DNA of 42,486 nt from the IMG/VR virus record IMGVR_UViG_2541047683_000004, positions 1 through 42,486 of that record; one strand, 5' to 3'. A program made the translations under genes and the position numbers. Origin of the DNA: a virus. Its lineage: Duplodnaviria; Heunggongvirae; Uroviricota; Caudoviricetes. Below the pieces are notes generated by a model, which worked only from the letters and a program-made list of their open reading frames with translations, made no database searches and was not told the origin of the DNA. Positions 3,688 through 36,857 of the stretch are shown here, one piece after another; the first letter of the stretch is position 1, and each line of letters starts with the position of its first letter.

Positions 3688-5817
3688 CTATTCCTCAATA
3701 CCTAACCTGCTTGAAACCTCCGGCATAACAGTAACCTGAAGGGTTTTTGATGAATCTGTGTTTTTAATTGCTATGCTGATATTGTCAGAAGTGCTGTTAT
3801 TGTTTGACACTGTTATAGAGTTTGCATCCACCCCGAGTTTCGAATAAGCATCAGCAAAACTAAGACCAACACTTCCACCAACAACTCTATATGAACCATC
3901 AATTCTGAATGACGATATATTGTTATTGCTAACATCTCTAATTAGAACCCATATAGAAACACCCCTGAAAACAAGGCTTGCCCCTGATGGTATTTGAAGT
4001 GATACAGTTCCTGTGGAACCGGGGGGGATACTGCCAGTATATTTAGTTCCGTGCAGATATTTCCCCGGTAGATCTAAATACGATGTGTCTGGATGTAATA
4101 AATTATGTATATGTCTGCTATCTATGCTTCCAGACAGAACCATAGAATCATTGCCATATTCAATTATCCTTCCACCATCGTTACTTATTGTAAGTAATCC
4201 TTTGTTTCCTTTATTATTTCTAACAGTTATATCAGAAGAATCCAGGCGGACAATTGATATATTTTTTTCTGATCCATGACAATAATTTGATGAAATTTCA
4301 CCTGTAACAAGTGACGTACATAAAATGTCTGAACTTCCATCACTGTCGCCAGTAATAGTGTTGCAGGAAATTAATGCACCATATACCAGGCCTGTTGGAG
4401 ATTCTCCAAATTGCTCTATAGTAATCCGTTTTGTGGTATTTGCTGATATGGTTATATTATGAACATCGTCAGTTTGCGATGTTACTTTGATCCTTGATGA
4501 AACTGTATTTCCAGAAATAGTAACATTACTTGTATCATCCACCCATAAATATGACGAAAACGTATTACATGATATGACTGAGTTACTCACCATTGAGTTC
4601 TCAAGCTCACATGAACCATAGCTATTGTTATGGTCATAATTTCCTATAATCCTTACAAATCCATTCTGGTTAATGAAGTTGTATGATGTTGCATTTTGTC
4701 CGCCATAAGTTGAGTTATGTGATGTTTCAGCATTTGTAACGCCTATATGTTGAAAATGACCGGCATTTACAGAATCAGGAGCAACTGATGTACACCCTAT
4801 TACTTTTGTGTTTTTGACAATTCTTGAATTAGGGTCATTCTCCAAATAATAGTTTTTTGCAACAAATGCCGTAGAGTAAAAGAAACCTTCAAATCTATTA
4901 AATAAAATCTGAATATCGTCATAATCTCTTTGGTCTTCATTTGCATAGCAATAAAATGCTCTTGAAGACTCGGAGTAATCCTTGCATTTCTGAACGCCAG
5001 ATAAAAGCGATCGGATTCTGCTAGATTTTATTCTAAATCCGTTGTGAATTAACGTTGCATCACCAACTAATGTTATTGGCTTAAACAATTCAACCTTATC
5101 AAAAACAAATTCACCACCATAAAATCCAAGTATAGCCCCTTCTGGTGCTGCATTAATAGCATTTTGAATTGCTACAGTATCATCTGTTATGCCGTCTCCT
5201 TTTGCACCAAAATCACGAACACTAATGGTGTCTCTCATCTTATCCTGGAACGTTCGGTACACAGCCCCAGAACCATACTGAATAAACCAACCAAAACCAC
5301 CAACAACCCCGGCGATTGCAGCATCGACATAATTACGCATTGAGCGATTATTTACAGCATCCTGCTCAAGTGATGGATCTGCAAGGTTAGAAATTCTGTT
5401 TTGCTTTGCATCGTAATATTTTGCAAGCAAAGATGGTTTCATCAATGCACGTCTGAACCACCCAAAACATTGCTGGATCAGCATCGTCAGGTAGTCAAAG
5501 GCATCTTCATGCACTTCGGGAAAAAACTTTCCCTGATTGCGAAGGTCTGTCTCCTGTACTACATCAAGCACACGATCTATCGTAATTCGCCATCCAGTAG
5601 CAAGCGGAGACGGAAGAACCACAGAACCGCCACTATAAGTGCCCGCCCCAGTTACCGTATAACCGGTATCCAGAACCAATTCTGTTACGTTCCCGTTCAG
5701 GTCAGACACCTGAACAACCAGGTCTGATTTTCTGAAAATTCGAAAAGTATACGGAAACGATGTCGTAACGCCGTTACCTGTGTATTCGTTGTGGTCAACT
5801 TCGGTTGAGACCGTCAT
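3688..5817 (-). CDS. Tailspike with right-handed beta-helix (pectate-lyase-like) polysaccharide depolymerase domain
   Basis: 709 aa; N-terminal particle-binding domain; motif VRDFGAKGDGITDDTVAIQNAI typical of pectate-lyase-3 superfamily; AT-rich, Ser/Asn/Thr-rich repeats. Confidence 0.8.
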   Translation of the reverse strand: MTVSTEVDHNEYTGNGVTTSFPYTFRIFRKSDLVVQVSDLNGNVTELVLDTGYTVTGAGTYSGGSVVLPSPLATGWRITIDRVLDVVQETDLRNQGKFFPEVHEDAFDYLTMLIQQCFGWFRRALMKPSLLAKYYDAKQNRISNLADPSLEQDAVNNRSMRNYVDAAIAGVVGGFGWFIQYGSGAVYRTFQDKMRDTISVRDFGAKGDGITDDTVAIQNAINAAPEGAILGFYGGEFVFDKVELFKPITLVGDATLIHNGFRIKSSRIRSLLSGVQKCKDYSESSRAFYCYANEDQRDYDDIQILFNRFEGFFYSTAFVAKNYYLENDPNSRIVKNTKVIGCTSVAPDSVNAGHFQHIGVTNAETSHNSTYGGQNATSYNFINQNGFVRIIGNYDHNNSYGSCELENSMVSNSVISCNTFSSYLWVDDTSNVTISGNTVSSRIKVTSQTDDVHNITISANTTKRITIEQFGESPTGLVYGALISCNTITGDSDGSSDILCTSLVTGEISSNYCHGSEKNISIVRLDSSDITVRNNKGNKGLLTISNDGGRIIEYGNDSMVLSGSIDSRHIHNLLHPDTSYLDLPGKYLHGTKYTGSIPPGSTGTVSLQIPSGASLVFRGVSIWVLIRDVSNNNISSFRIDGSYRVVGGSVGLSFADAYSKLGVDANSITVSNNNSTSDNISIAIKNTDSSKTLQVTVMPEVSSRLGIEE

Positions 5818-5991: not shown

Positions 5992-6013
5992 TTATTGCAT
6001 GGAGAAGATTAAG

Positions 6014-6271
6014 ATGCAGCAGTATCACTATCCACTGGAAGACGGATTTACCGAAAGGATTCACACGCCGGGAGGCGTCAGGTCACTGGTGGAGGGATCG
6101 CACTTGATGAAATTACTCCGGGATCTCGATAAGGATGGATTTAATGTCGATGGCCCACTTGCCGAACTGACTGCACTGATTAACTACGTCACCAGCTCAC
6201 AGATGTCTATGCGGGATCTGCAAACACATCTCGACTATTGTGCCGAACAATTACGAAAACAAACCCGGTAA
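6014..6271 (+). CDS. Small SOS-controlled antirepressor-like protein (stand-alone copy of the shared C-terminal module)
   Basis: 85 aa; GGAGAAG RBS; aligns to the C-terminal 70 aa of the two larger antirepressor-like proteins (LM.LL..L..DG..V.G..AELT ... RD.QTH..Y). Confidence 0.6.
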   Translation: MQQYHYPLEDGFTERIHTPGGVRSLVEGSHLMKLLRDLDKDGFNVDGPLAELTALINYVTSSQMSMRDLQTHLDYCAEQLRKQTR

Positions 6272-6293: not shown

Positions 6294-7022
6294 CTATCGT
6301 TTCGCTTTGTGCTCGTCCCAGCACGTTTTGCACCATGCCATTAAGCCGTCCGCATTTTGATTATTAGGGTAAAAGCTGGTCCGTTTTCTGCGGACATTAC
6401 AAATTGGGCACCACTTCATATGGCGTGTATTCTTTGGGCCATCGAGACACCTTGCACACCACTTAGTCAATCCATCTGGATTTTTTGACGATTTCCGGAA
6501 TTTGTCATATGGAAGGTTTATTCTGCATCGCAAACACTGCTTGCGGCCACTTGAAACTCTGTTAGCTGATTCTTCTTTTGACGGCGATACAGAAGGTATT
6601 CTTGCTGGCTCTGATACTGCCTGAGGTGCTTTTTTAGATGACTGAGACGATATGTCATCACCAGGGAATCTTCCATGATATGCCGGACGCGTTGACACTC
6701 CAGGTGGAAGCTCAGCTGTAAACGGCTTTGGCTGAATCAGTTGCCTCTCTTTTGCTAACTCCTGCTGTTTATAATATGTCTGGATTACCGCACTATCATA
6801 AGCAGGAGGTGCGGAAATATTAGGCGCATTACCTCCAGTTTTTTGAAACTGAGTAGAGGTGTGTTCTATCACCTGTGTACGATTAATCGTTATCTCCCCA
6901 TCTTCGGTCTTTATCGTTTTGTTATGATTAACGACCGTACGATCAGAGATCTTAGTCTTGTTCTGGTTGATAACGTAAATAATCACCGTAACCACACCAA
7001 CAACTATCCAGAAAACTTCCAT
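6294..7022 (-). CDS. Membrane-anchored protein with C-terminal double zinc-ribbon (2 x CxxC...WCxxC)
   Basis: N-terminal TM MEVFWIVVGVVTVIIYV, Pro/Ser-rich linker, two Cys4 units; GAGGAAAA RBS; 5-prime cassette identical to gene 10832. Confidence 0.6.
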   Translation of the reverse strand: MEVFWIVVGVVTVIIYVINQNKTKISDRTVVNHNKTIKTEDGEITINRTQVIEHTSTQFQKTGGNAPNISAPPAYDSAVIQTYYKQQELAKERQLIQPKPFTAELPPGVSTRPAYHGRFPGDDISSQSSKKAPQAVSEPARIPSVSPSKEESANRVSSGRKQCLRCRINLPYDKFRKSSKNPDGLTKWCARCLDGPKNTRHMKWCPICNVRRKRTSFYPNNQNADGLMAWCKTCWDEHKAKR

Positions 7023-7041
7023 TGCTTTTCCTCACAATAAC

Positions 7042-7058
7042 ATTACCTTAAAGGTAAT
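7042..7058. promoter_or_regulatory. Operator-like palindrome (copy 2)
   Basis: attaccttaaaggtaat, 14 nt upstream of RBS of gene 6294-7022. Confidence 0.6.
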
Positions 7059-7134
7059 ATCTTGCTTTCAGGTGATCAAGCATTAAACGCAACCAACCAA
7101 ATACGGTTGATTTTAATATTTCTTCGCGTTTATC

Positions 7135-7151
7135 ATTACCTTTGCGGTAAA
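7135..7151. promoter_or_regulatory. Operator-like palindrome (copy 3) abutting putative -35 TTTACA of leader promoter
   Basis: attacctttgcggtaaa; followed by TTTACA-N17-CATAGT. Confidence 0.55.
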
Positions 7152-7186
7152 TTTACATCGCACTCCTCTTGTGCCATAGTAATCGG

Positions 7187-7262
7187 GCACTGGCAAAATC
7201 CAGTGCCGGGATTGGCGTCCCGGATTACTAAAAGGCGCATTCACCGCGCAAGCGGTTTTTTT
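7187..7262 (+). ncRNA. Candidate small structured RNA (two hairpins plus intrinsic terminator) in antirepressor leader A; c4-like riboregulator candidate
   Basis: Hairpins gcactgg/ccagtgc and ccggg/cccgg, terminator accgc-gcaa-gcggt-T7; conserved with compensatory changes in inverted copy at 10096-10174. Confidence 0.4.
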
Positions 7263-7419
7263 ATGCGTATAGCACGGCCACATTCGTATTATGGTGGGCT
7301 GTGTGGGGGCACCGAAAGGTGCGCCGGGTCCTTTTAGCCGGTTACGCCAACCCTGCACAGTTCACCACCAACCGATTGGCGTCGGTAGTGGTGATTAACC
7401 AGACTAAAAGGTAACCACT

Positions 7420-8115
7420 ATGACAGCTACAAAAAGCACGTCCATTTTTTCTTTCGAATCCCAAGCCGATATACGGGTAATCGTCATTAATGGTGAGCCA
7501 TGGTTTATCGCTTCAGATGTTTGTCGGGCTATAGGCATAGCAAACCATCGAGATGCTGTTCGAAAACTTGATGATGATGAGAAGGGCGTCGCTTCAACCG
7601 ACACCCCTGGCGGTGAGCAAGAATCGATCATCATCTCCGAGTCAGGCCTCTACACACTGATCCTCCGCTGCCGCGACGCAGTGACACCAGGCACTATCCC
7701 CTACCGCTTTCGCAAATGGGTTACAGGTGAGGTTCTTCCTCAGATCCGCCGCACCGGAAGTTACATTAAAAACTCGCTCCCGCAGGAAGAACGCATAAAG
7801 ATGGTTGCCGACCAGGTAGCCAACGCCACGGCGTCAGCAGTAATGCAGGCGATGAAGATAGAGAACAAAACCTACAGCGCCCCGCTGAAGCCCGGCTACC
7901 GCAGTCTGATTCATTCGCCGTCTGGTGTTCTCGGCCTGACGGAGAACTCATTGCTGATGAATCTGCTGAATCAGTTGCAGGACGACGGGCATGATGTATC
8001 GGGCGCGGCGGCGGAACTGACCACCATGTTCTGCTACATCGTCGGTGTGAGCAAATGCCTGCGTGATATCCAGACCCACGCGGAGTACATCAACGACAAG
8101 GCAGGGTTCTTCTGA
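7420..8115 (+). CDS. Antirepressor-like protein, Bro-N type N-terminal domain plus shared C-terminal module
   Basis: N-terminal SIFSFESQADIRVIVINGEPWFIASDVCRAIGI resembles Bro-N; C-terminal 80 aa nearly identical to gene 9289-9939. Confidence 0.65.
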   Translation: MTATKSTSIFSFESQADIRVIVINGEPWFIASDVCRAIGIANHRDAVRKLDDDEKGVASTDTPGGEQESIIISESGLYTLILRCRDAVTPGTIPYRFRKWVTGEVLPQIRRTGSYIKNSLPQEERIKMVADQVANATASAVMQAMKIENKTYSAPLKPGYRSLIHSPSGVLGLTENSLLMNLLNQLQDDGHDVSGAAAELTTMFCYIVGVSKCLRDIQTHAEYINDKAGFF

Positions 8116-8159
8116 CGGGCGGTGGCACAGGGATGTGCCTTTAAATAATTCTGTACAGA

Positions 8160-8188
8160 TTGCAGACTGTGGGTGAATAGCGTACTAT
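8160..8188 (+). promoter_or_regulatory. Sigma70-like promoter TTGCAG-N17-TACTAT for cassette 8263-9216
   Basis: Hexamers with 17-bp spacer; operator palindrome overlaps -10 and start site. Confidence 0.5.
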
Positions 8189-8203
8189 TACCTCAAGGGT
8201 AAA
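8187..8203. promoter_or_regulatory. Operator-like palindrome (copy 4)
   Basis: attacctcaagggtaaa overlapping -10/+1 of cassette promoter. Confidence 0.55.
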
Positions 8204-8262
8204 CGGATTGGTTTCATTTTTATTAATCCGTGTAATGAACTTATGAGATATGAGGTAATGTC

Positions 8263-8442
8263 ATGCGAAACGAAAAATTGCAGATGCGTAGAGCGCAAGC
8301 TGCCGCAAGACGTTCTTTCAATGGAAGCGTAGAGTACGTAAAAGTTACTATGACAAAAGATCACGCAAGTCGCGTATCCCGCGCTTTCTTTGATTCTCGT
8401 AACAATAAGGAAAATTATGAGTTCGTCTGCGTCGCAGAATGA
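8263..8442 (+). CDS. Small basic protein (59 aa), candidate antitoxin or regulator
   Basis: GAGGT RBS 6 nt upstream of ATG; overlaps start of downstream gene by 26 nt; not in supplied ORF track because under 60 aa. Confidence 0.4.
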   Translation: MRNEKLQMRRAQAAARRSFNGSVEYVKVTMTKDHASRVSRAFFDSRNNKENYEFVCVAE

Positions 8443-8962
8443 TAAAAATCAAATTGTCAGATATAAGGGTCGAGTGTTGCATACGCAAAATTTCTCGGCC
8501 CTTTGTGCATCTGATCTTGAGCTGAAGAAAGTATCTGATGCCTTTACCCAGTATTGGAAAACGGGATACCATCCATCTCTTGGTAAAGATGCTGCATTTG
8601 CTCGTCCGACAGAAATGCTTAAACTAAATGTCAGGCATACTCATGTCGATAACCAAGACTATATTCCAGAAGATAGTGATAAAAAACACACTGGTAAAAA
8701 ATCATCTTGGGATGCATGGAAAAATATAGCGTCTGTACAAGTAAAATGCATACCAACAAGTGATTGCTTTTTAGTTTATTCGGTAAATCACAATCGTGAT
8801 GCGCTGGTTATGTTTTTTGTTGACGCAGATGCTCACAACATAACTGAGCAAGAAGAGTTTAAAGAGGAAGCAATCACTATCAGTTATCAATTCTTTGAGA
8901 AAACAAAAACAGAACCAATGCCTTTAGAAGAAGATCTTTTTTCTGATAAATGGAAGGAATAG
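8417..8962 (+). CDS. AT-rich accessory protein, possible YafO-like toxin (tentative)
   Basis: AAGGAAA RBS; motif pattern F..Y...G..P..GKD, RHTHV, FLVYS, DADAH resembles recalled YafO-family pattern; visibly AT-rich versus flanks. Confidence 0.4.
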   Translation: MSSSASQNDKNQIVRYKGRVLHTQNFSALCASDLELKKVSDAFTQYWKTGYHPSLGKDAAFARPTEMLKLNVRHTHVDNQDYIPEDSDKKHTGKKSSWDAWKNIASVQVKCIPTSDCFLVYSVNHNRDALVMFFVDADAHNITEQEEFKEEAITISYQFFEKTKTEPMPLEEDLFSDKWKE

Positions 8963-8982
8963 CCCGCAGCGCGGGCTTTTTT
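8963..8982 (+). terminator. Rho-independent terminator
   Basis: cccgc-agc-gcggg followed by T6. Confidence 0.6.
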
Positions 8983-9054
8983 GTGGACGAAACAAAAGTC
9001 AGTGCTACACTCATTGACGCCACATTGAGGTGGCTTATAGATGGAAATTTCACA

Positions 9055-9216
9055 ATGAAAAAAGCATTTGCTGCACTGTTCGTTTTATTGTCTCTGGTAG
9101 CTTCAACTCAGGCCTTTGCCGGTCGTTGTCAGCACGACAGCGATACTGCTGCTGACGGCTCCCGCTGCGGTGGGCGTTCTGCGGATTCCCGTCCGGGCGG
9201 CGGTGGCATTCGTTAA
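9055..9216 (+). CDS. Small secreted Gly/Arg-rich peptide (53 aa) with signal peptide
   Basis: MKKAFAALFVLLSLVASTQAFA signal then 31-aa Cys-containing tail; weak RBS. Confidence 0.35.
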   Translation: MKKAFAALFVLLSLVASTQAFAGRCQHDSDTAADGSRCGGRSADSRPGGGGIR

Positions 9217-9239
9217 AAACAAGGCCGCGAAAGCGGCCT
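9214..9239 (-). terminator. Intrinsic terminator for antirepressor gene B
   Basis: aggccgc-gaaa-gcggcct hairpin followed on minus strand by T-run. Confidence 0.55.
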
Positions 9240-9251
9240 GTGACATGTCAC
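9240..9251. repeat. Perfect 12-bp palindrome GTGACATGTCAC (copy 1 of 3)
   Basis: Exact palindrome between convergent genes. Confidence 0.6.
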
Positions 9252-9288
9252 GATAGTTTCGTTTTGCACATCCCTGTGCCGCCGCCCG

Positions 9289-9939
9289 TCAGAAGAACCC
9301 TGCCTTGTCGTTGATGTACTCCGCGTGGGTCTGGATATCACGCAGGCATTTACTCACACCGACGATGTAGCAGAACATGGTGGTCAGCTCCGCCGCCGCG
9401 CCCGATACATCGTGCCCGTCTTCCTGTAACTGGTTCAGCAGATTCATCAGCAGTGAGTTTTCCGTCAGGCCGAGAACACCAGACGGAGAATGAATCAGAC
9501 TGCGGTAGCCGGGCTTCAATGGGGCACTGTATTCTTTTTTGTCTTCCAGCTTGATCGCCTCCATAATGGCGGGCATGAAGCCTGACAAGACCTTCTCCAC
9601 TTTTGTTTCTTGTTGTCTTAAACGTTTCTCGCATTCAATGAAGTAGCGTCGTACCTGACGACCTTTTTCGTTACGCTCGACCATCGCCAGCTCTTTGGCT
9701 GTATCGAGGGTTAGGTGGTAGTCTTTTGCAGGACGGCCTCTGCCTATTTTTTCCCGAACTTGGGAAATAATCATAAAGTCTTGATTTTCAACGAAGCCAT
9801 ATTCAGCAATTCGTTCGACAATCCACGAAGCAAATCGCTTACCCACATCGAGGAAAGTGTGTAAATCACGGGCATTAACGAGAAGAGCGGTTTCGTTGGA
9901 TATAGTGCCGTTGAATACGGGGATGAGTTGAGCGTTCAT
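9289..9939 (-). CDS. Antirepressor-like protein, AntA/Rha-type N-terminal domain plus shared C-terminal module
   Basis: N-terminal LIPVFNGTISNETALLVNARDLHTFLDVGKRFASWIVERIAEYGFVENQDF resembles AntA-type domain; C-terminal 80 aa matches gene 7420-8115; GGAG RBS. Confidence 0.65.
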   Translation of the reverse strand: MNAQLIPVFNGTISNETALLVNARDLHTFLDVGKRFASWIVERIAEYGFVENQDFMIISQVREKIGRGRPAKDYHLTLDTAKELAMVERNEKGRQVRRYFIECEKRLRQQETKVEKVLSGFMPAIMEAIKLEDKKEYSAPLKPGYRSLIHSPSGVLGLTENSLLMNLLNQLQEDGHDVSGAAAELTTMFCYIVGVSKCLRDIQTHAEYINDKAGFF

Positions 9940-10095
9940 GATGGCGTCTCCACTTAGCGAATTACATCACCACCGCTGAGACCAATCAGATGGTGGTGAA
10001 CTGAACGGAGTTGGTCTTACCGGCCTAAGTGGTACCGGCGTCCTTTCGGACCCCCATTCAGCCCACCATAATTCTGGCATGACTGTGCTATACGC

Positions 10096-10174
10096 ATAAA
10101 AAAACCACGTCTGGCGTGGTATGCGCCACTTAGTAATCCGGGAGACCAATCCCGGCACTGGATTTTGCCAGTGC
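10096..10174 (-). ncRNA. Candidate small structured RNA in antirepressor leader B (inverted paralog of 7187-7262)
   Basis: Same hairpin-hairpin-terminator architecture; terminator stem differs in sequence but preserves pairing (ccacg-ccaga-cgtgg). Confidence 0.4.
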
Positions 10175-10209
10175 CTGATTACTATGGCACAAGAGGAATG
10201 CGATGTAAA

Positions 10210-10226
10210 TTTACCGCAAAGGTAAT
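10210..10226. promoter_or_regulatory. Operator-like palindrome (copy 5)
   Basis: tttaccgcaaaggtaat, inverted counterpart of copy 3. Confidence 0.55.
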
Positions 10227-10372
10227 GATAGACACAGACAAACATTAAAATCAACCATATTTGGTTAATGCGTGTAAAAGAGCCAGCAGCGAGAAATTGT
10301 GCCGCGACGTAAAATAACGAGCATCTGCTGGCTTACAACCAGCGATGTTTCAAATTTGTCACTACTATCAAC

Positions 10373-10771
10373 GTGCCATTCCACGGCGCAGAGCTTTATG
10401 TTGTCAATCACAACGGCGAACCGTATACCCCAATGAAACCTATCGTTGAGGGAATGGGGCTAGACTGGAAATCTCAACATAAGAAGATTTCTCAACGCTT
10501 CTCGAAGGGTATGGTGGAAATCACCATACCTTCTGCCGGTGGGGTGCAAGCCATGATTTGTATGGCTTTACGAAAATTGGCAGCTTGGTTGAACAGCATC
10601 AGCCCTAACAAAGTCCGCCCTGAAATCCGCGACAAGGTAATCCAGTATCAGGAAGAGTGTGACGATGTGCTCTACGAGTACTGGACTAAAGGCCATGTGG
10701 TTAACCCACGCAAAGCTAAAAAGGCGTTGCCGGGTAAAATCACTACTGAGCAACAGGAGGTATACACTTAA
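10373..10771 (+). CDS. Antirepressor N-terminal-domain-like protein, start codon unclear (possibly truncated remnant)
   Basis: Segment LYVVNHNGEPYTPMKPIVEGMGLDWKSQ resembles P22-antirepressor-type N-domain by recollection; only GTG or internal ATG starts, no good RBS. Confidence 0.35.
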   Translation: MPFHGAELYVVNHNGEPYTPMKPIVEGMGLDWKSQHKKISQRFSKGMVEITIPSAGGVQAMICMALRKLAAWLNSISPNKVRPEIRDKVIQYQEECDDVLYEYWTKGHVVNPRKAKKALPGKITTEQQEVYT

Positions 10772-10795
10772 CACTTGATCACATTAGCACAAAAC

Positions 10796-10812
10796 ATTAC
10801 CTTTAAGGTAAT
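10796..10812. promoter_or_regulatory. Operator-like palindrome (copy 6)
   Basis: attacctttaaggtaat 14 nt upstream of RBS of gene 10832; part of 49-bp block identical to that at 7020-7060. Confidence 0.6.
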
Positions 10813-10831
10813 GTTATTGTGAGGAAAAGCA

Positions 10832-11359
10832 ATGGAAGTTTTCTTAATCATCGTCGGCATCGTGATTATTAATTTTGTTTTTTTATTTATTGCAAAAAAA
10901 CAAAAAAGTAACGATATGCATGTTTCTACAACTGATGATCTTACCTTTGTAGAGCATGCACTGAATGTATCAGGATATAAACTCACCCCATACGGAGCTG
11001 GTGTATCACTCATGTCTTTAAGTAACGGTTTTTCAAAAGAAGAAACATTTTCACATATAGCTTTGATGGCTCTTTCTCAACACGCCAAAGTCGCAGGTAG
11101 TGACGCAATTGAGCTTAGTAAAGTTAGCATTCGTGCGATGTCGATAGCTGAAAACTTAACTAAATTATTCAGGAAAGGTCTTATTCGATCAGAAATATAT
11201 AAAAATGATTTGAATGCTATCATGGCTGTCAGCACAATTAATGAAAACCAAGAGGATTGGATTTCCATAGTTCTGGAAAGCAATAGCACATCTAACAAGG
11301 ATACTATTGCTTTGCCGATAAGTGCAGAAGCTTCTTTAGAAGCCATAAACAGCCATTGA
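10832..11359 (+). CDS. AT-rich membrane-anchored accessory protein (moron), function unknown
   Basis: N-terminal TM MEVFLIIVGIVIINFVFLFIA then soluble domain; visibly low GC; shares promoter-operator-RBS-TM cassette with gene 6294-7022. Confidence 0.55.
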   Translation: MEVFLIIVGIVIINFVFLFIAKKQKSNDMHVSTTDDLTFVEHALNVSGYKLTPYGAGVSLMSLSNGFSKEETFSHIALMALSQHAKVAGSDAIELSKVSIRAMSIAENLTKLFRKGLIRSEIYKNDLNAIMAVSTINENQEDWISIVLESNSTSNKDTIALPISAEASLEAINSH

Positions 11360-36201: not shown

Positions 36202-36218
36202 TTTACCTGTTGGGTAAT
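36202..36218. promoter_or_regulatory. Operator-like palindrome (copy 10) in immunity region
   Basis: tttacctgttgggtaat; nearby inverse arrangement GGTAAC...GTTACC at 36165-36190. Confidence 0.55.
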
Positions 36219-36272: not shown

Positions 36273-36857
36273 ATGAAAAGTATCCAGGACGTCCGCAGGC
36301 AAAATCTCAACGACTTGATCGACCGTGAATTCAATGGTGTTCAGACGCGGATGGCAGAAAAACTTGGAACTCAGGCAAATCTGGTAAACCGCTGGGCTCT
36401 TGGCAAGAAGGTTATCGGCGACCAGGTTGCGCGAAAAATTGAAGCTGCCGCCAATAAACCCCGTAACTGGCTTGATATCGATCGCTCGCTTTCTCAGGAA
36501 GGTTTTCAGCCTGTCGGCCCAAGCGACATTGGTCAGCTGGCAGCTCACAACCTGGAACGCTGGATGAGCGAAAGCCGCGACCTTTCAACACAGGGAAAAC
36601 TTCACCGCGCATCCGGCGTAGCCCAGGTGACAATCAGCCGCCTGTTAAACAATGAGGTCAGCGTTTCCATTTCCACCCTGGAGAATGTTGCATCCGCATT
36701 CGGGCGTCACGGCTATGAATTACTGATTCACCCGCACGACCCTGCGACCATCAACTATGATCGCTCGCGCTACGCATTGTTACCCGAAACCGAGAAAGCA
36801 AAGATCGAAAGTTACATTGAATTTGTCATCAACCAGAACGAAAAAAACAAACAATAA
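36273..36857 (+). CDS. Phage repressor candidate with two tandem XRE-type HTH domains
   Basis: Two helix-turn-helix-like segments (residues about 20-45 and 105-130); monocistronic between operator clusters; terminator downstream. Confidence 0.6.
   Translation: MKSIQDVRRQNLNDLIDREFNGVQTRMAEKLGTQANLVNRWALGKKVIGDQVARKIEAAANKPRNWLDIDRSLSQEGFQPVGPSDIGQLAAHNLERWMSESRDLSTQGKLHRASGVAQVTISRLLNNEVSVSISTLENVASAFGRHGYELLIHPHDPATINYDRSRYALLPETEKAKIESYIEFVINQNEKNKQ

Follow-up and report, generated by a model that had tools for sequence, protein, structure and literature searches.

A YafO-family toxin gene and its small partner gene as candidate toxin-antitoxin cargo behind a repressor-type operator in an Escherichia coli prophage

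The DNA analyzed here (the window, 42,486 nucleotides of viral record IMGVR_UViG_2541047683_000004) is an E. coli prophage, and it carries a pair of overlapping genes that are candidates for a toxin-antitoxin system. We propose that the two genes (about 8204-8960) form a type II toxin-antitoxin module in which a YafO-type toxin would be neutralized by its cognate partner, a 59-aa protein encoded by the overlapping upstream gene. Prophages of the phiV10/epsilon15 type (Uetakevirus) would carry the pair as exchangeable cargo in a slot at a fixed position, directly downstream of a Bro-N gene, and the slot would supply a promoter whose -10 hexamer abuts the palindrome TTACC-N5-GGTAA, with the geometry found at the ant promoters and the repressor gene. 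The master repressor would keep the pair off in a lysogen, and upon induction or fresh infection the pair would be transcribed together with ant. The observations that carry this explanation are the family and fold of the toxin, the small gene being coding and invariably linked to the toxin gene, the over-representation and placement of the operator, and the cargo junctions; we infer the toxicity, the neutralization, the operator-binding protein and the timing of expression. Taken as a whole, a type II module as slot cargo under a master-repressor operator seems to us reasonably likely.

The locus is flanked by two convergent antirepressor genes, a Bro-N gene on the plus strand immediately upstream of the pair (7420-8115; Pfam Bro-N, E = 2e-21) and an AntA-type gene on the minus strand (9289-9939; Pfam AntA, E = 8e-28). 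Homologues of the C4 antisense RNA lie 5' of both ant genes, which also have in common a 279-nt inverted repeat (94%; 7860-8138 and 9266-9544), its right arm being the C-terminal domain of the AntA-type gene. An invertible switch at this repeat was considered and rejected, as the pair is co-oriented with the directly upstream Bro-N gene at every locus examined. All three ORFs of the original prediction are present, at 8263-8442, at 8417-8962 and, with a signal peptide, at 9055-9216, and the ORF list gives a 26-nt overlap between the first two. The large gene is as described, but its product is 181 aa long instead of 182. The terminator expected behind it was recovered by the terminator scan at 8961-8984 on the plus strand (hairpin 8961-8977, then a T-run), where it ends the two-gene operon; a second hairpin, with a minus-strand T-run, ends the right-hand ant gene at 9222-9239. 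The GC content is 37.4% in the toxin gene, 43.9% in the small ORF, 56.2% in the peptide gene and 49-53% in the flanking ant genes, compared with 48.2% for the window, and the low value in the toxin gene together with the homology breaks around the pair agrees with the predicted horizontal acquisition of AT-rich DNA.

Sequence comparison and modeling place the 181-aa protein encoded at 8417-8962 (+) in the YafO family, as a genuine, divergent long form with a RelE/HigB fold. A resemblance to YafO had been predicted, and a profile search confirmed it: the protein matches Pfam YafO_toxin (PF13957) over model positions 3-92 of 101 at E = 8e-6, its 26.3 bits exceeding the cut-off of 25 by a small margin, and 53 of 80 relatives match the same model, the best with E = 5e-29. 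When the long clade (A1) was compared by hhalign with a short YafO-like clade (A5, the YafO-length relatives of 121-154 aa that match the YafO Pfam model), the probability was 99.8% (E = 3e-29, 134 aligned columns), and the motifs FxxYK-G-xxP-xxG(K/R)D...RP, HxH, TSDxxLxY and AH were aligned between the clades. Across the family alignment of 80 sequences, G56 and H76 are invariant, and F43, P64, S115, Y121 and H140 are nearly so. An AlphaFold2 model built from this alignment reached a pLDDT of 91.8 and replaced one made from 23 close homologues only (pLDDT 57). The model has the RelE-like alpha/beta fold of the RelE/ParE (BECR-fold) superfamily, and its closest PDB structures are HigB/RelE/YoeB toxins. 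The protein is a candidate mRNA endoribonuclease that would most likely cut its targets at the ribosome or close to it. A PDB sequence search with the toxin returned no match, and a fold search of the model against viral predicted structures (BFVD) returned no significant match. RefSeq already names the protein as this toxin. The YafO family has about 1,000 members in Pfam, among which we found no solved structure, and a literature search covering YafO in prophages or defense, TL-2011b and Uetakevirus toxin-antitoxin systems found no study of the pair.

Several lines of comparative evidence identify the small ORF at 8263-8442 (+) as a real gene, and its selection pattern and linkage to the toxin make its basic 59-aa product (phrog_6685) a candidate antitoxin. 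GAGG lies 7-8 nt 5' of its ATG, and this ribosome-binding site is conserved across cassettes, as is the dual-coding overlap (YEFVCVAE / MSSSASQ). Both genes of the pair are under purifying selection, the partner changing faster than the toxin; for the small ORF, pN is below pS in 21 of 21 pairwise comparisons, and dN/dS is 0.15-0.5 where calculable. Its homologues comprise 13 protein clusters and phrog_6685 (E = 3e-45), and it is intact in 43/43 IMG/VR loci. A small ORF stands directly 5' of each long-form YafO gene that was examined, including those whose toxins are as little as 31% identical; the gene overlap is present in all main-clade loci, and linkage is kept in 18/18 non-redundant cassette lineages compared as well as in the 43/43 IMG/VR loci. 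In one natural allele (L060) the toxin gene is frameshifted by 8 nt and the partner is intact, and the converse occurs in 0/43 loci, a pattern that indirectly supports a toxic product which the partner would neutralize. The two genes are thus adjacent, co-oriented, within one operon and linked across evolution, as in type II systems, and the toxin-antitoxin-like arrangement originally proposed for the small-then-large pair stands.

The partner measures 55-63 aa across contexts and 139 aa in EC.W1-9, and a conserved core motif is retained even in distant partners (55-139 aa); in the 59-aa protein the conserved core spans residues 25-59. The 59-aa protein has no Pfam or NCBIfam antitoxin family and no recognizable DNA-binding domain, and it is not a YafN (Phd/YefM)-type cognate antitoxin. 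A Pfam scan of 17 partner sequences gave sub-threshold noise only (DUF7890 in 10/17, best E = 0.008), and a ribbon-helix-helix that we had read by eye from VKVTMTKDHASRVSRAF was dropped on this result. An NCBIfam scan of the toxin, the small protein and the 53-aa peptide likewise gave nothing meaningful. On these comparisons, the partners appear to be a family not previously described and unrelated to YafN.

Upstream of the pair lies a plus-strand promoter with -35 TTGCAG at 8160-8165, a 17-nt spacer and -10 TACTAT at 8183-8188. Its consensus match is weak (7/12 positions) and it is absent from the consensus promoter scan list; we accept it as real because it is conserved in comparison. Nearly all orthologous cassettes likewise have a -10 hexamer directly next to this palindrome, the site lying 11 nt further downstream in Serratia. 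The original prediction assigned this promoter to the cassette; the promoter is there, but ownership fails, as the same promoter drives another gene in phiv142-3. The palindrome predicted at +1, TTACC-N5-GGTAA (TTACCTCAAGGGTAA), lies at 8188-8202, where it overlaps the end of the -10 and is centered on the expected +1. The window holds 13 exact copies of it and 16 at one mismatch or fewer, against 0.77 expected, and 0/100 shuffles gave more than 3. One site of this highly over-represented operator family thus sits in the promoter, in line with the prediction that it is repressible. Exact sites overlap the core promoter with the same geometry at 7136 and 10211; the promoter/operator junction reads TATCAT/TACC at P_ant compared with TACTAT/TACC at the pair. 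The operator is also exact in 42/42 main-clade IMG/VR cassettes, 53-82 nt 5' of the small ORF.

The putative trans-acting regulator of the slot promoter is the phage repressor (36273-36857, +; 194 aa, two HTH motifs), whose gene has operator copies around it at 36203 and 36915/36977. It is 100% identical to phiV10 p40. The sequence of p40 is in turn that of the ZX5 repressor ORF21, a protein whose overexpression blocks the lytic cycle (PMC9782041). The operator also has copies at equivalent places in phiV10, which lacks the pair; of its 8 copies, three flank the repressor gene. We take from this that TTACC-N5-GGTAA most likely serves the phage master repressor as its operator. We rejected the palindrome as a private operator of the pair, given that phiV10 keeps its copies without the pair and phiv142-3 reuses the site. 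A literature search for phiV10/epsilon15 operators found no study of this operator; the 2007 epsilon15 genome paper reportedly noted ATTACC-N5-GGTAAT repeats. Because both the site and its geometry match those of the ant promoters, the pair would be repressed in a lysogen; it is probably silent there and switched on with the antirepressor.

Homology to related phages marks out what is mobile at this slot. In phiv142-3, promoter and operator are identical but lead into a different gene in place of the pair, and EC.W1-9 has a 108-aa gene and a DUF2335 gene, so the view of the locus as a cargo site holds. On the left, homology breaks at 8203 or 8157, and on the right at 8936 or 8961, resuming at 8961 with EC.W1-9 and at 8936 with phiv142-3. 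Since these breaks fall at the operator on one side and the terminator on the other, only the two-gene pair, about 8204-8960, is movable; the terminator region 8961-8984 is the right-hand junction of the swappable cargo, and by the same alignments the promoter and operator are the backbone of the phage slot and not the pair's own. The pair is absent from phiV10, phiv142-3 and ZX5 and, among 5,426 complete E. coli genomes, was found in 58. In Uetakevirus-type loci it follows a Bro-N gene: this is its immediate upstream neighbor in Serratia, Cedecea, Klebsiella aerogenes and Hafnia, and 40/43 IMG/VR loci contain a Bro-N homologue. All long-form relatives whose context was examined are in a phage or satellite, and distant family members are morons in tail and baseplate modules with their own promoter and a different palindrome.

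The phage-type operator is the only regulatory site of the window pair, but other cassettes differ. Another palindrome, TGACG-N4-CGTCA, has 7 exact copies in 978 kb, all 5' of small ORFs; it occurs in six other lineages, the Cedecea and Kosakonia cassettes among them, with a one-mismatch version in L018, and is absent from the window cassette. The TTACC-N5-GGTAA operator is exact in cassettes elsewhere, namely in Kosakonia (L010; CP158850.1), on an IMG/VR contig (L059) and in a P4-like element of Pectobacterium (L009; JAXAFK01), and the sampled 20 kb of these three held no Uetakevirus-type immunity region. A cassette-encoded binder is therefore possible.

A toxin shielded by its antitoxin and silent in the lysogen offers no obvious benefit, and other functions for the pair have to be weighed. 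The original prediction favored defense or exclusion, in which the pair would be expressed in the lysogen and cause abortive infection upon attack by another phage. Modules of the RelE/ParE superfamily can serve defense (PMC11980606), the pair sits in a variable cargo hot spot of the prophage on AT-rich, horizontally exchanged DNA, and the distant moron relatives, with their own promoter and different palindrome, could be on in lysogens. No PADLOC-DB 2.0 model, however, matches the toxin, the small protein or the 53-aa peptide at E up to 1, and the sole regulatory site is the phage operator on the -10/+1, placed as at the ant promoters, which must be off in lysogens. A prophage defense gene would need to be on in the lysogen, and we consequently consider defense unlikely. 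A lytic-cycle effector, as opposed to a toxin-antitoxin system for addiction or defense, is doubtful, if a little easier to entertain: after derepression, the YafO-like RNase would cut host mRNA for shut-off or lysis commitment, with the small protein as a dosage buffer or timer. This would suit an operator that links expression of the pair to derepression with ant, as well as the confinement of the examined long-form relatives to phages or satellites, and the SOS-induced yafNO genes are a precedent for switching YafO-type toxins by DNA damage. Tight co-translation with a conserved neutralizer is, however, the hallmark of a self-limiting toxin-antitoxin pair and not of a deployed effector, and the pair is dispensable, since phiV10, phiv142-3 and ZX5 do without it; few of the complete E. 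coli genomes have it.

It is also conceivable, though improbable, that the 59-aa protein or the toxin-antitoxin complex binds TTACC-N5-GGTAA itself, with identity to the phage operator reflecting cross-talk or mimicry. Autoregulation is usual for type II antitoxins, the site is exact in every main-clade cassette even though synonymous sites are saturated, and exact sites also occur in non-Uetakevirus contexts with no other copy nearby. Yet the 8 copies in phiV10 are there although the pair is not, unrelated cargo stands behind this promoter and operator in phiv142-3, the cassette-specific TGACG-N4-CGTCA is a better candidate for an operator of the pair's own, and the partner has no recognizable DNA-binding domain. 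A variant to which we give little credence is that the protein or complex reads the master-repressor operator, which would build the pair into the immunity circuit of the phage and make it an auxiliary lysis-lysogeny switch. It would explain the exact site on cassettes in unrelated prophages and a P4-like element; if true, antitoxin decay would both free an mRNA-cutting toxin and alter repression at the 13 operator-bearing promoters, including those of both ant genes. Finally, the small ORF might be a chance ORF or a leader and the YafO-like gene an orphan, the latter being how RefSeq in effect presents it in most genomes. PGAP, the NCBI pipeline, does not call the ORF in NZ_AP042515, and the ORF has no Pfam or NCBIfam match, but its consistently low pN relative to pS and its intactness in all IMG/VR loci led us to reject it as spurious; with the protein clusters, phrog_6685, and the conserved ribosome-binding site and overlap also against it, this reading is almost certainly wrong.

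A repressor-controlled toxin-antitoxin module, the reading we prefer, has partial counterparts in known systems. The toxin is homologous to that of E. coli K-12 YafN-YafO, with the HxH, TSDxxLxY and AH motifs in common. It is longer than YafO (181 aa vs 132 aa), with an insertion of about 30 residues after HxH and a conserved C-terminal tail, MPLEEDLFSDKW; its 59-aa partner, unlike YafN, matches no antitoxin family, and the pair is phage-borne cargo whereas YafN-YafO is chromosomal. The yafNO genes belong to the LexA-controlled, SOS-induced dinB operon, so both systems would be switched on by lifting a DNA-damage-sensitive repressor. Gene order in the YafO family is antitoxin then toxin (PMC11980606), the same as in the small-then-large pair here, and HigBA modules have the reverse order with the toxin gene first (PMC11980606). 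HigBA antitoxin families also differ from the partner, and HigB2/HigA2, HigB1 and other ribosome-dependent mRNases of the RelE superfamily are only 4-17% identical to the toxin.

The scattered operators recall phage P1, where the C1 repressor has many dispersed operators and immI contains the c4-icd-ant operon. As in P1, a single repressor-type palindrome is scattered before accessory and early operons, including ant, and C4 antisense RNA homologues precede the ant genes, but the repressor family and operator sequence differ. P1 phd-doc is autoregulated and expressed in the lysogen, whereas the pair here stands behind the phage operator. Lambda kil, Rac ydaS/ydaT under RacR and Qin dicB under DicA are toxic genes silenced by prophage repressors, and the pair would resemble them as a growth inhibitor kept off until derepression. 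To our knowledge, none of them is co-transcribed with a dedicated antidote or encodes a RelE-fold RNase.

YafO is among the smallest and least studied families of RelE-type toxins, and this locus defines a phage-specialized long-form YafO with its own mini-antitoxin family, mostly missed by genome annotation. It also places a candidate toxin-antitoxin pair behind what is most likely a prophage master-repressor operator, in a slot that swaps cargo at the operator and the terminator. If the proposed regulation is true, prophage toxin-antitoxin pairs are not automatically lysogen defense, and some would act only once the phage is induced or infects. In practice the gains are modest: better annotation (a toxin that is not an orphan), a defined phiV10-type operator, and a test case for a repressor-gated toxin.

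The third ORF, at 9055-9216 (+), was originally grouped with the pair as one cassette, a grouping that does not survive comparison: the gene is GC-rich and occurs without the pair in phiv142-3, EC.W1-9 and HEMP4, and the gene lists of the Serratia, Cedecea, K. aerogenes and Hafnia pair loci have no peptide gene after the pair. It encodes a secreted 53-aa peptide ("transmembrane anchored protein," phrog_14503) with homologues in 57 clusters. Its signal peptide, which ends AFA/G, is variable, and from genus to genus there is almost no change in the mature part, CQHDxDTAADGSRCGGRSADSRPGG. By these comparisons, the peptide gene belongs to the phage backbone, is highly conserved and has no tie to the toxin pair.

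The comparisons best support a long-form YafO toxin carried with what would be a new mini-antitoxin, as exchangeable cargo of a slot under repressor control beside an antirepressor (ant) gene. A small ORF of 59 aa (8263-8442, +) overlaps by 26 nt the toxin gene of 181 aa (8417-8962, +), and a 53-aa peptide is encoded at 9055-9216 (+). All three ORFs were confirmed in the sequence, a terminator scan placed a hairpin and T-run at 8961-8977 (+) that closes the pair, and GC content was 37.4% in the toxin gene and 43.9% in the small ORF versus 48.2% over the whole window and 49-53% in the ant genes on either side, which upholds the original prediction of three ORFs, an AT-rich pair, and a terminator. 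Unlike the pair, the peptide gene is GC-rich (56.2%). The proposed promoter, TTGCAG-N17-TACTAT, is weak against the consensus and absent from the promoter scan output, and is backed by comparison across loci.

The larger product had been guessed to be a YafO-type toxin, and the guess was right. It matches the Pfam YafO_toxin model just above threshold (26.3 bits against 25), and a profile-profile comparison joined the long and short clades with 99.8% probability (E = 3e-29) and aligned family motifs; the existing RefSeq annotation of the gene is YafO family toxin. A word-indexed search returned only 27 clusters, all from Enterobacterales, and 70 relatives, some of the canonical length of about 132 aa, emerged when 1.84 billion cluster representatives were searched in full with an HMM. 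The YafO model was matched by 53 of 80 aligned relatives (best E = 5e-29), and an AlphaFold2 model built with the deeper alignment reached a pLDDT of 91.8. Relative to canonical YafO, the long form has a ~30-residue insertion after the HxH motif and a conserved C-terminal tail. YafO toxins degrade mRNA and form a small family, of about 1,000 members, in which the antitoxin gene precedes that of the toxin (PMC11980606). The full 1.2-kb segment is present in 58 of 5,426 complete E. coli genomes.

The 59-aa ORF is omitted from the RefSeq annotation of NZ_AP042515 and matched no family in Pfam, NCBIfam, or PADLOC searches; it does match phrog_6685 (E = 3e-45) and 13 protein clusters. Because pN was below pS in all 21 pairs among seven cassettes from different genera (dN/dS 0.15-0.5 where calculable), the ORF is, judged by its substitution pattern, a genuine gene despite the missing annotation. 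The toxin gave dN/dS of 0.06-0.18 in the same comparison, with synonymous sites saturated. All contexts examined have a partner ORF directly before the toxin gene. They comprise Uetakevirus-type prophages of Serratia, Cedecea, Klebsiella aerogenes, and Hafnia; a P4-like (integrase-primase) element of Pectobacterium; the lysis-terminase junction of a Kosakonia prophage; siphovirus tail modules; a myovirus baseplate module; and 43 IMG/VR contigs. Even where toxins are only 31-46% identical, partners have a common core, a short beta-like stretch followed by K/x-x-H/x-A-x-x-(V/I)-S-(R/K)-x-(F/M) and an acidic C terminus, which is also found in a 139-aa partner in phage EC.W1-9. In one contig (IMGVR_UViG_3300045988_122777, locus L060, 5387-5921), an 8-nt deletion frameshifts the toxin near codon 100 and leaves the 59-aa partner intact; the reverse case was seen in none of the 43 IMG/VR loci. 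This allele, a single case, has the pattern that a toxin-antitoxin relationship predicts.

The phage closest to the window, itself a phiV10/epsilon15-type (Uetakevirus-like) E. coli prophage, is TL-2011b (first 20 kb: 77% covered, 96% identity). The pair sits between the tailspike gene (3688-5817, -) and large internal virion protein genes (from 11381, -), where antirepressor functions are abundant. Pfam assigned a Bro-N type antirepressor gene at 7420-8115 (+) and, convergent to it, an AntA type gene at 9289-9939 (-). In phage phiv142-3 the identical promoter and operator precede an unrelated 55-aa gene; the EC.W1-9 versions, which are related, precede a 108-aa gene together with one for a DUF2335 membrane protein. 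Homology to the window ends at 8203 and 8157, respectively, and returns at 8936 and 8961, so the exchangeable unit is the two-gene pair alone, with promoter, operator, terminator, and peptide gene as backbone. The three genes had been read as one cassette with its own promoter and operator, and neither point survives this comparison, since the peptide gene is backbone and phiv142-3 uses the same control elements for other cargo. A second, distant YafO pair of the long form occupies the neighboring slot of EC.W1-9, with an operator-like site in front; its toxin is 31% identical to that of the window. That pair (PP445227.1, 28067-28982; 1559-2474 in our locus L019) encodes the 139-aa partner and a 168-aa toxin, and its slot runs divergently to the Bro-N ant gene, with TAGAAT-GT-TTACCCTAGAGGTAG in front of the pair. 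On these comparisons, YafO-type pairs are recurrent cargo of these slots.

The operator palindrome, TTACC-N5-GGTAA, has 13 exact copies in the window against 0.77 expected. One is in the pair's promoter (8188), two are in the ant promoters (7136 and 10211), three in neighboring promoters (5922, 7043, and 10797), others, arranged in pairs, surround early operons and the repressor gene (33854/33916, 36203, and 36915/36977), and two more lie at 26416 and 29501. The junction with the -10 element is TATCAT|TACC at P_ant and TACTAT|TACC at the pair, the same geometry, covering -10 and +1. This scattered set is reminiscent of the regulon layout of phage P1 C1 control. In phiV10, which is without the toxin pair, eight copies occupy equivalent positions and three of these flank repressor gene p40, so the site would belong to the phage core. 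A 194-aa window protein (36273-36857) is 100% identical to phiV10 p40, whose sequence is that of the ZX5 ORF21 repressor, overexpression of which blocks the lytic cycle (PMC9782041). The putative ligand is most likely this master repressor. The operator is also exact in 42 of 42 main-clade IMG/VR cassettes and in cassettes inside elements without a second copy in the sampled 20 kb, one of which, the IMG/VR contig L059, has an immunity region of a different kind there. The site would be bound either by a phiV10-type repressor encoded in another part of those genomes or by a product of the cassette; we consider the second option improbable. A defense role in the lysogen had also been proposed, and the placement of the pair behind a phage promoter and operator argues against expression there.

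The sequence collected (978 kb) contains seven exact copies of a second palindrome, TGACG-N4-CGTCA, each upstream of a small ORF (L010 9746, L012 9763, L053 8084, L059 9735, L005 3779, and L006/L007 3714), and a copy with one mismatch at about 2741 in L018. In the cassettes of Kosakonia, Cedecea, L053, and L059 it covers the -35 element and precedes the phage-type operator by 26-27 nt each time; in the siphovirus cassettes it lies between promoter and RBS. Its fixed half-sites and variable spacers suggest a module-specific protein-binding site, and it is the obvious candidate site for autoregulation by the antitoxin. In the window lineage it is absent, and the phage operator is the only one.

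The antirepressor region (6997-10857) is overall a large imperfect mirror, amounting to a convergent pair of P1-immI-like ant operons that each have an operator. Its repeat pairs are the outer promoter regions (6997-7086/10768-10857, 83%), isrK and C4 antisense RNA homologues (7187-7372, +; 9989-10174, -), and the C-terminal domain common to both flanking antirepressors (7860-8138/9266-9544), a 279-nt inverted repeat of 94%. Behind operator 5922, a 90-aa protein (5999-6271, +) is a stand-alone antirepressor C-terminal domain (44% identity to the 7420-8115 product, E = 2e-17) that could modulate the Ant proteins or compete with them. A third antirepressor-type gene (10373-10771, +, 132 aa; P22_AR_N domain, E = 9e-45) points away from the right-hand ant operon. 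Two unrelated-looking cargo genes, 6294-7022 (-) and 10832-11359 (+), follow operator-bearing promoters (operators 7043 and 10797), have nearly identical N-terminal transmembrane starts (MEVFWIVVG/MEVFLIIVG), and look like additional repressor-controlled slots; the 242-aa cargo protein has a Cys-rich C terminus with a weak Stc1 zinc-ribbon-like match (E = 3e-4). A tRNA-Arg (anticodon TCT) lies inside the prophage at 26753-26829 (+), near operator copy 26416.

The peptide gene is found both with and without the toxin pair. The promoter scan gave no consensus promoter for it, and TTGACG at 9014-9019 has a poor -10. Its signal peptide is variable and its mature part, CQHDxDTAADGSRCGGRSADSRPGG, hardly changes among at least six genera (Escherichia, Klebsiella, Cronobacter, Salmonella, Pectobacterium, and Dickeya). 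PHROGs categorizes the peptide as a moron or membrane-associated protein. In the mature part, two Cys residues surround a loop, DxDTAADGSR, similar to a calcium-binding motif.
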